Source of the DNA: Escherichia coli
GTDB taxonomy: Bacteria; Pseudomonadota; Gammaproteobacteria; Enterobacterales; Enterobacteriaceae
Reading direction: 5' to 3' (one strand)
Assembly (NCBI RefSeq): GCF_003334335.1
Contig: NZ_QOWQ01000165.1
Length of the DNA stretch: 632 nucleotides
Shown here: positions 1 through 632 of the stretch, in pieces
Position numbering within the stretch: position 1 is the stretch's first letter
Layout: each line of letters opens with the position of its first letter
Program-made: the position numbers and the translations under genes
The notes under the pieces: model-generated
Told to the model about the DNA's origin: nothing
What the model saw: only the letters and a program-made list of their open reading frames with translations
Databases searched by the model: none

Positions 1-632
1 GAGATTGACAACAGTCAGCTGAAGGACGAGATGGCGGAAATGCAGACCACCATCACAGAAACCCGCAATGAAATCACGCAGACGGTCAGTAAAACGCTGG
101 AAGACCAGAGCGCCACCATACAGCAGATACAGCGCGTGCAGAAGGACACAAATGATGACCTTGCTGCACTTTACATGCTGAAGGTACAGAAAACAAAAAA
201 TGGCATACCCTATGTTGCCGGTATTGGAGCGGGGATTGAGGATACTGATGGCCAGCCCCTGAGCAACATACTGCTGCTGGCTGACCGTATTGCGATGATT
301 AACCCGGAGGACGGCAACACCACGCCGTTATTTGTGGCGCAGGGGAATCAGTTGTTCATGAACGATGTGTTCCTGAAGCGGCTGTTTGCGGTGAGTATCA
401 CCTCGTCCGGCAATCCCCCGACGTTTTCCCTGACGCCGGAGGGCAGGCTGACCGCAAGAAATGCTGATATCAGCGGTAACGTGAATGCGAATTCCGGGAC
501 GCTCAACAACGTCACGATTAACGAGAACTGTCGGGTTCTGGGAAAACTGTCCGCGAACCAGATTGAAGGCGATCTCGTTAAAACAGTGGGCAAAGCTTTC
601 CCCCGGGACTCCCGTGCACCGGAGCGGTGGCC
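1..632 (+). CDS. J: Phage tail tip attachment / host specificity protein J (central tail fibre), internal fragment, partial at both ends; reading frame 1 with first full codon at nt 1, last full codon ending at nt 630
   Basis: Seen in sequence: frame 1 is open for 210 codons with no stop; codon usage is G/C-rich at third positions as in enterobacteria. Recalled homology, not a database search: the translated segment VAGIG...[20 protein letters not shown]...[42 protein letters not shown] closely resembles the corresponding region of lambda gpJ (recalled as ...[59 protein letters not shown]...[43 protein letters not shown]...AAFPRQ), roughly the last third of a ~1100-aa protein. The only competing ORF is a short antisense one. 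Confidence 0.88.

Follow-up and report, generated by a model that had tools for sequence, protein, structure and literature searches.

The Asn-rich segment encoded in the 632-nt stretch of Escherichia coli DNA analyzed here (the window) is an ordinary, already known and structurally solved part of a lambda-type J protein, and its conserved feature, to judge from alignments of homologues, is a skeleton of Gly, Ala and aliphatic residues, not its asparagines. Most probably the segment is a structural element of the trimeric J fibre, located where the central straight fibre (CSF) makes its last turns immediately above the receptor-binding domain (RBD), and its ~11-residue units would supply interchain strands there. 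By itself this finding matters little: it confirms the conserved shaft-to-tip junction of a well-studied fibre, which is neither variable nor unusual. Only a modest addition comes from the kinship of the segment with an 11-residue unit, and with a larger module recurring every 55–81 residues, found in other phage fibres.

Identity of the Window and Its Protein

Frame +1 of the window runs through 210 codons without a stop, and its product corresponds to residues 832–1041 of the 1157-residue J protein of Escherichia phage PhiR5_1; the Asn segment is residues 985–1007 of that protein, with 150 residues coming after it. Nucleotide identity between the window and the PhiR5_1 gene, annotated as "tail tip host specificity protein J," is 99.5%, and the window protein is 100% identical to that of several Stx2a-converting phages. 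PhiR5_1 is the closest public phage and is otherwise lambda-like, with the gene order M-L-K-I-J-lom (annotation of PV340545.1). Its full-length J protein scores 2312.5 bits on the NCBIfam profile NF049904 (lambda_TipJ), above the curated cut-off of 1950 bits; the fragment in the window, taken by itself, reaches 330 bits across profile positions 834–1041. PF12421 is annotated on full-length relatives of the window protein. The profile score, the identity to the J gene, and the matches to lambda and A8 J entries in the PDB (see below) all uphold the proposal of the earlier note that the protein is a homologue of lambda gpJ, which solved structures place at the tail tip as a homotrimer (PMC11101478). 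On the evidence of its sequence, the window is a fragment of J from a lambdoid Stx-type coliphage.

The features of the window are collected in Table 1. The antisense open reading frame that overlaps the Asn segment was rejected as a gene; it is a mechanical reading frame within the J coding region. Two PHROGs profiles, phrog_94 ("head maturation protease") and phrog_15 ("terminase large subunit"), also match the J fragment through their C-terminal parts, with E-values of 1e-17 to 1e-24; both profiles probably contain chimeric or fused sequences, and for that reason constitute an annotation trap.

Table 1. Features of the window; nucleotide positions count from the first letter, residues (aa) from the first codon of frame +1.
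Feature	Position (nt)	Strand	Basis and remarks
ORF fragment of central tail fibre / host specificity protein J	1–630	+	210 codons; identity to PhiR5_1
Equivalent of lambda alpha-helical shaft (AHS, lambda 809–861)	7–168	+	Alignment mapping; 20–40% aa identity to lambda, divergent allele
Pfam PF09327 (Phage_Tail_Tip) match	118–501	+	aa 40–167, E 9.4e-24
CSF, trimeric beta-helix/prism	169–573	+	aa ~57–191 = lambda 862–996; 8jvm homology
Antisense ORF, 81 aa, overlapping the Asn segment	348–593	−	ORF listing; TTG start
Unit U1	442–474	+	aa 148–158; degenerate copy of G-x-[IVL]-x-A-x-x-[G/A]-x-[ILF]-x, spacing read from sequence
Asn-rich segment	460–528	+	aa 154–176 = lambda J 959–981
Unit U2	475–507	+	aa 159–169; canonical fibre unit, motif match at J residue 990
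Unit U3	508–540	+	aa 170–180; N170 where U1, U2 and U4 have Gly
Cys177, directly after the Asn segment	529–531	+	Conserved in J-type homologues
Unit U4	541–573	+	aa 181–191; ends at conserved G190-D191, = lambda D996 at the CSF/RBD interface
Post-CSF stretch	574–630	+	Its domain runs past the window end; RBD types diverge after ~aa 195

Location of the Segment in the Solved J Fibre

The domains of lambda gpJ comprise hub domains, two FNIII domains, the alpha-helical shaft (AHS, residues 809–861), the CSF and an Ig-like RBD (Ge et al., PMC11101478). The CSF, which lies above the RBD, has been termed a "mixed beta-sheet prism" (PMC11101478) and a "trimeric beta-helix fold" (Strobel et al., PMC10999833), and lambda D996 sits at the CSF/RBD interface (PMC10999833). 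The supplement of PMC11101478 gives no residue numbers for domain boundaries; a description of 8JVM and the CSF, looked for in PMC10721106, is absent there, and a literature search found no paper for the A8 gpJ entries 9WCA and 9WCB.

Among solved structures, the best match to the window is 9wca (A8 gpJ713; E 9e-70), followed by 8xcj, 8xck and 8iyk (lambda J 829–1012; E ~1e-62), which are homologous across the whole window, and by 8jvm, a 166-residue lambda J chain (E 1.3e-55) whose Foldseek title is "AHS-CSF domains of phage lambda tail." Alignments indicate that the 8jvm chain spans lambda residues ~830–995; window aa 32–190 align with chain residues 8–166, and the Asn segment with chain residues ~130–152. 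The counterpart in lambda J (Table 1) was assigned by a codon-aware alignment and, with D996 at the CSF/RBD interface, puts the segment in the last CSF turns, ~15 residues before the RBD. The mapping onto tail-tip structures suggested in the earlier note puts the segment inside the solved CSF domain; it is also among the 305 residues that the closed-state models 8xck and 9wca contain. A weak Pfam match to Bactofilin (aa 147–189, E 0.012) was set aside as an analogy to another beta-helix, not homology.

An AlphaFold2 (AF2) monomer model built from a 38-sequence alignment matches 8xcj, 9wca, 8xck and 9wcb (Foldseek E 1e-20 to 1e-31). Over the Asn segment its pLDDT is 86–91 and the chain runs extended, pairing with no other part of itself, as is expected for an intertwined trimer; DSSP assigns coil and no strands there. 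Helix is predicted in the AHS-equivalent region, at low pLDDT. The monomer model of the D996 stretch of lambda likewise looked disordered yet confident, and became an interwound trimer (Strobel et al., PMC10999833). A pseudo-trimer was also predicted, using a 13-row alignment and a single chain in which 40-residue Gly-Ser linkers connect three copies of the part from aa 116 to the C-terminus; it has short strands at ADIS, VNA, GTLN, VTI, CRV, and LSA, with pLDDT <50 there and 25–35 in the fibre part, values too low for this model to settle the strand assignment.

A segment of this kind might instead be read as a flexible, low-complexity Asn/Gly/Ser linker or hinge that joins the shaft to the RBD and has no fixed structure. 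Such a linker would agree with the composition (N, G, S, T), with the coil assigned by DSSP in the monomer, with the low pLDDT of the pseudo-trimer, and with the bending of the fibre upon receptor binding (PMC11101478; PMC12617516). It is nevertheless quite unlikely, because the monomer model is confident across the segment, the region keeps a strict 11-residue Gly/Ala/aliphatic skeleton (Gly159, Ala163, and Gly166 at 96% each), it lies within the 8jvm construct and the residues modelled in 8xck and 9wca, and the similarly disordered-looking stretch of Strobel et al. proved to be part of an interwound trimer. An ordered piece of the trimeric fibre remains the preferred reading.

Composition and Conservation of the Asn-Rich Segment

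Eight Asn residues do occur within 23 positions (aa 154–176), encoded by a mixture of three AAT and five AAC codons, as the earlier note had reported. Its interval of 460–531 is right for the start but three nucleotides too long, since the 23 residues occupy nt 460–528 and the last triplet adds the codon of Cys177. The enrichment is real but modest. The whole window is already rich in Asn (19 of 210 residues, 9%), which makes the cluster only moderately unusual: when the 210 residues were shuffled, 1.0% of 20,000 shuffles gave at least eight Asn in some 23-residue window, and the binomial tail for eight Asn is 6e-4 if the window's own Asn frequency is taken and 1.5e-6 for a frequency of 3.9%. 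The alternation of polar and hydrophobic residues that had been remarked on is also present, with A155, I157, V161, A163, L168, V171, and I173 alternating with polar residues, and its register is broken at S165-G166 and N169-N170.

Among the positions in and around the segment, the 38-sequence alignment has G148, G159, A163, G166, and G190 invariant, and L150, A152, N154, I157, N170, C177, G181, A185, and D191 conserved at 90% or more. Because E. coli prophage fragments make up most of the homologue set, aa 146–195 were clustered at <65% identity to give a reduced set of 23 clusters, in which such fragments still dominate. In the reduced set, G148, G159, A163, and G166 are conserved at 0.96 each, A152 at 78%, and I157 at 83%; G181, G190, and D191 are 82–96% conserved. 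Conservation of the asparagines in the same set is 0.57 for N154, 0.26 for N160, 0.30 for N162, 0.35 for N164, 0.43 for N169, 0.57 for N170, 0.35 for N174, and 0.39 for N176, so that the mean for the eight Asn is 0.40 vs. 0.63 for the non-Asn positions of the segment. The number of Asn per homologue ranges from 0 to 8, and the eight of the window are the maximum. The expectation that an alignment of homologues would find the Asn positions invariant is thus contradicted: six of the eight are variable in the reduced set, and only N154 and N170 are fairly well kept.

The same distinction applies to lambda J itself. The lambda segment aligns without gaps, shares 20 of the 23 residues and has the same Gly/Ala/aliphatic skeleton, so that conservation in lambda gpJ, as claimed earlier, holds for the segment as a whole; it fails for the asparagines, only five of the eight being shared, with Ser, Ser, and Ala in lambda at the other three. 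The accompanying suggestion that the segment is structural rather than hypervariable is supported by its place in the island most conserved with respect to lambda J, upstream of the divergence of RBD types at ~aa 195. The conservation of Cys177 is at least 90% in the 38-sequence alignment, 94% among J-type segments, and 70% in the reduced set. There would be three such cysteines per trimer, and they would sit near the fibre axis just above the RBD, where they might serve in packing, in metal binding, or as a disulfide.

The 11-Residue Unit and Its Relatives in Other Fibres

The four units listed in Table 1 begin at G148, G159, N170, and G181, at intervals of 11 residues. The motif G.[IVL].[AS]..G.[FLIVM] has 268 matches in the collected proteins vs. 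6.6 expected in shuffles, and exact 11-residue spacing was found in 7–8 proteins (P0171, P0184, P0193, P0196, P0213, P0241, and P0262, with the LL12 fibre counted among them). The tail fibre of LL12, an rV5-like myovirus, carries the unit G-x-[IV]-x-A-x-x-G-x-F-x in four copies with exact 11-residue tandem spacing (GNINASSGNFT GAVNATSGTFR GDVYANNGSFR GTIDATGGTFR).

An exhaustive search of representative proteins found some in which the stretch equivalent to window aa 128–184 recurs: 14 matching stretches in P0213 (3079 aa; E 6e-23), 14 in P0221 (1256 aa; E 6e-20), and five in P0262 (1004 aa; E 5e-13). The C-terminus of P0221 is a Peptidase_S74 intramolecular chaperone domain, and the N-terminus of P0262 is a Prophage_tail domain (Tal-like, PF06605). 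These repeat-type fibres and LL12 have in common with J the module F-x-[VL]-x-x-x-G-x-L-T-A-x-x-A-x-I-[ST]-G-x-[IV]-x-A-x-[ST]-G-x-[ILF], of which an example from the repeat-type copies is LTATSASITGSVTANSGTVGGWTL. They differ from J in carrying the module 5–14 times, with Thr or Ser in place of the J asparagines and IGGW in place of LNNV; J has one canonical unit, with degenerate ones on its flanks. Of 24 repeat-type copies, 21 have Gly in place of N170, the pair N169-N170 being aligned there with the G-G of IGGW; a Cys equivalent to position 177 is missing from the repeat-type copies. A search of PDB sequences with the repeats of P0262 returned lambda and A8 J entries only, which makes J the only solved instance of the module found by sequence search; the module on its own has no Pfam family match in the proteins scanned. 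Of the two structural ideas put forward in the earlier note, a beta-rich fibre repeat is supported, given that the segment belongs to the trimeric CSF and has the unit that other phage fibres repeat in tandem.

The second idea, a conserved Asn ladder, would have the asparagines stacked in register along a beta-helix, each required for the fold. The segment does lie within a beta-helix/prism domain (PMC10999833), N154 and N170 reach 90% or more in the 38-sequence alignment, and position 7 of the unit (N154, S165, N176, and Q187) is a polar column. Six of the eight Asn, however, vary freely (26–43% in the reduced set), lambda has the substitutions given above, repeat-type copies carry Thr or Ser, and Gly-Gly at 169–170, and most of the Asn positions are replaced in natural variants. 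Nor do the asparagines share one register, as they fall at position 7 of U1, positions 2, 4, 6, and 11 of U2, and positions 1, 5, and 7 of U3. With variable positions and no common unit register, the ladder is not borne out, and it is very unlikely to describe the segment.

A distant fibre, the tail tip fibre of Aeromonas phage phiARM81mr (1322 aa; 3501–3638 of L003), matches the window solely at aa 149–194, with 52% identity (NGSFTGTVNANAGTFQNVTIEETCNVKGTVYANKIVGDV). The module, together with the conserved Cys, travels independently of the remainder of J.

A wider and less likely reading is that the segment could be one copy of a widespread fibre module, the 11-residue unit within a module recurring at 55–81 residues, that acts as a portable beta-helix "joint" before the receptor-binding tips of very different fibres (siphovirus J, Gram-positive Tal, rV5-like myovirus fibres, and fibres with S74 chaperones). 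In J, such a joint would be both the conserved flank that permits exchange of the RBD and the first mechanical element relaying receptor binding up the fibre. A link to the tandem 11-residue unit of unrelated fibres could aid the annotation of fibre shafts.

Proposed Structure and Role in the Fibre

In the favored model, in which the segment is part of the trimeric J fibre, aa 148–191 would form four consecutive units of ~11 residues with the pattern G-x-aliphatic-x-Ala-x-polar-Gly/Ala-x-aliphatic-x. The short strands of the units are proposed to pair with strands of the other two chains, with Gly at turns and with Ala and aliphatic residues filling the narrow core. The asparagines would occupy alternate or turn positions at which, if the side chains are oriented as presumed, any small polar residue (Asn, Ser, Thr, His, or Asp) is accepted. 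N169-N170, equivalent to Gly-Gly in the paralogous repeats, may make a tight turn. Asn tolerates a Gly-like backbone conformation, and N170, going by such general residue propensities, fits a turn that needs one. The stretch as a whole would mount the three receptor-binding domains on the shaft.

When lambda binds LamB, the beta layers immediately over the RBD shift inward (Ge et al., PMC11101478) and the bottom CSF layers gain nine hydrogen bonds, which starts a twist that travels up the CSF, freeing the helical shaft and opening the tip (PMC11101478). Since the segment lies in the bottom region of the CSF, it probably takes part in this receptor-triggered coupling. It would probably belong, if the layers are correctly matched, to the bottom beta layers that compact on receptor binding and start the tip-opening twist.

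The closest solved relative, A8 gpJ713 (9WCA, closed; 9WCB, open with OmpC, E. coli EDL933), was compared through entry titles, chain lengths, and sequence. This J is 96% identical, and its segment agrees at 22 of 23 residues; the 20 residues after the segment are also nearly identical, and the RBD diverges after FPR. Chain F of 9wcb (A8 J with OmpC in the open state) has 174 modelled residues, and in an A8-like J (P0149) the last 174 residues start exactly at NADISG. Aligned with the window J, these 174 residues give 178 columns at 65% identity, and Foldseek reports 178 columns at 64%. Chain length and alignment statistics together suggest that the ordered part of the open state begins at the Asn segment.

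The central fibre of F-type pyocins (PMC12874032; PDB 25vf) is a more distant relative, matching the window with an E-value of 0.002 and only over aa 26–125, outside the Asn segment. It resembles J in having a J-like, PF09327-type region and a trimeric beta-prism with strand patterns of ~11 residues (PMC12874032). Its non-switching prism strands just before the distal domains have been proposed as seeds of prism formation, and it differs in a 163-residue switch from coiled coil to prism, which according to the authors does not occur to that extent in lambda (PMC12874032).

Mosaic Context and Host Range

The helical shaft upstream and the RBD downstream of the segment are alleles other than those of lambda J, which binds LamB, and have 20–55% identity to it. 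Nucleotide identity to lambda is 0.72–0.87 over aa 109–178, ~0.5 in the upstream shaft, and 0.45–0.55 from aa 169–188 onward. At the protein level the window is a mosaic with respect to lambda J, the shaft part (nt 1–330) having 20–50% amino acid identity and aa 109–178 (nt 325–535) having 80–90%, with a drop after ~aa 178. Among homologues, the same core segment is joined to differing upstream shaft alleles and, after ~aa 195, to unrelated C-terminal domains (e.g., P0131, P0165, and P0251), which identifies the segment as part of the conserved, shaft-side flank of an exchangeable receptor-binding tip. The boundary between the conserved shaft (to ~aa 194) and the exchangeable RBD is a natural splice point for host-range engineering, and designs of that kind must preserve the Gly/Ala skeleton, not the asparagines. 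Prophage J genes that combine a lambda-type shaft with the RBD type of the window were also seen (P0142 and P0144). Another J fragment, P0121 (568 aa), leaves the J-type C-terminal end ~20 residues before the usual terminus, after ...EFSVSAWL, and then runs on for ~115 further residues (KEKGAFDQPYWMM...), possibly through a frameshift or a fusion.

Variable regions of diversity-generating retroelements (DGRs) are typically rich in AAC codons. A hypervariable host-range determinant, such as a DGR variable region, could for this reason be imagined here: the gene encodes a phage tail fibre, five of the segment's codons are AAC, and the segment is close to the 3′ part of a receptor-binding protein. 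The context speaks strongly against it: the 9.6 kb examined around the segment hold no second (template) copy of it, the annotation of the 51-kb phage PhiR5_1 lists no reverse transcriptase, the changes relative to lambda are scattered across third codon positions in the manner of ordinary divergence, and the segment is a conserved flank, with RBD diversity beginning ~18 residues downstream. A DGR origin is accordingly extremely improbable.

Features of the Nucleic Acid and of the Phage Context

At the level of DNA, repeats in the window are chance matches of 10–12 nt only, with no tandem repeats, and the protein periodicity of the segment region has no counterpart. The sole match in an Rfam scan, at 568–590, scores 18.6 bits, under the gathering score of 39, and the fold of an inverted repeat on either side of the segment is no more stable than those of shuffled sequences (z = −0.47).

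Two observations concern PhiR5_1 outside its J gene. The coding sequence at 6299–7870, annotated as "hypothetical protein," contains nineteen overlapping copies of a 9-nt-periodic GGN NNN NNN repeat (6713–7584 of L001), which is a collagen-like Gly-X-Y region; this protein is probably a side tail fibre, as its gene sits just upstream of a tail fibre assembly gene. In addition, genes annotated as HipA toxin and HipD antitoxin adjoin the cI repressor gene (7915–9488 of L005).
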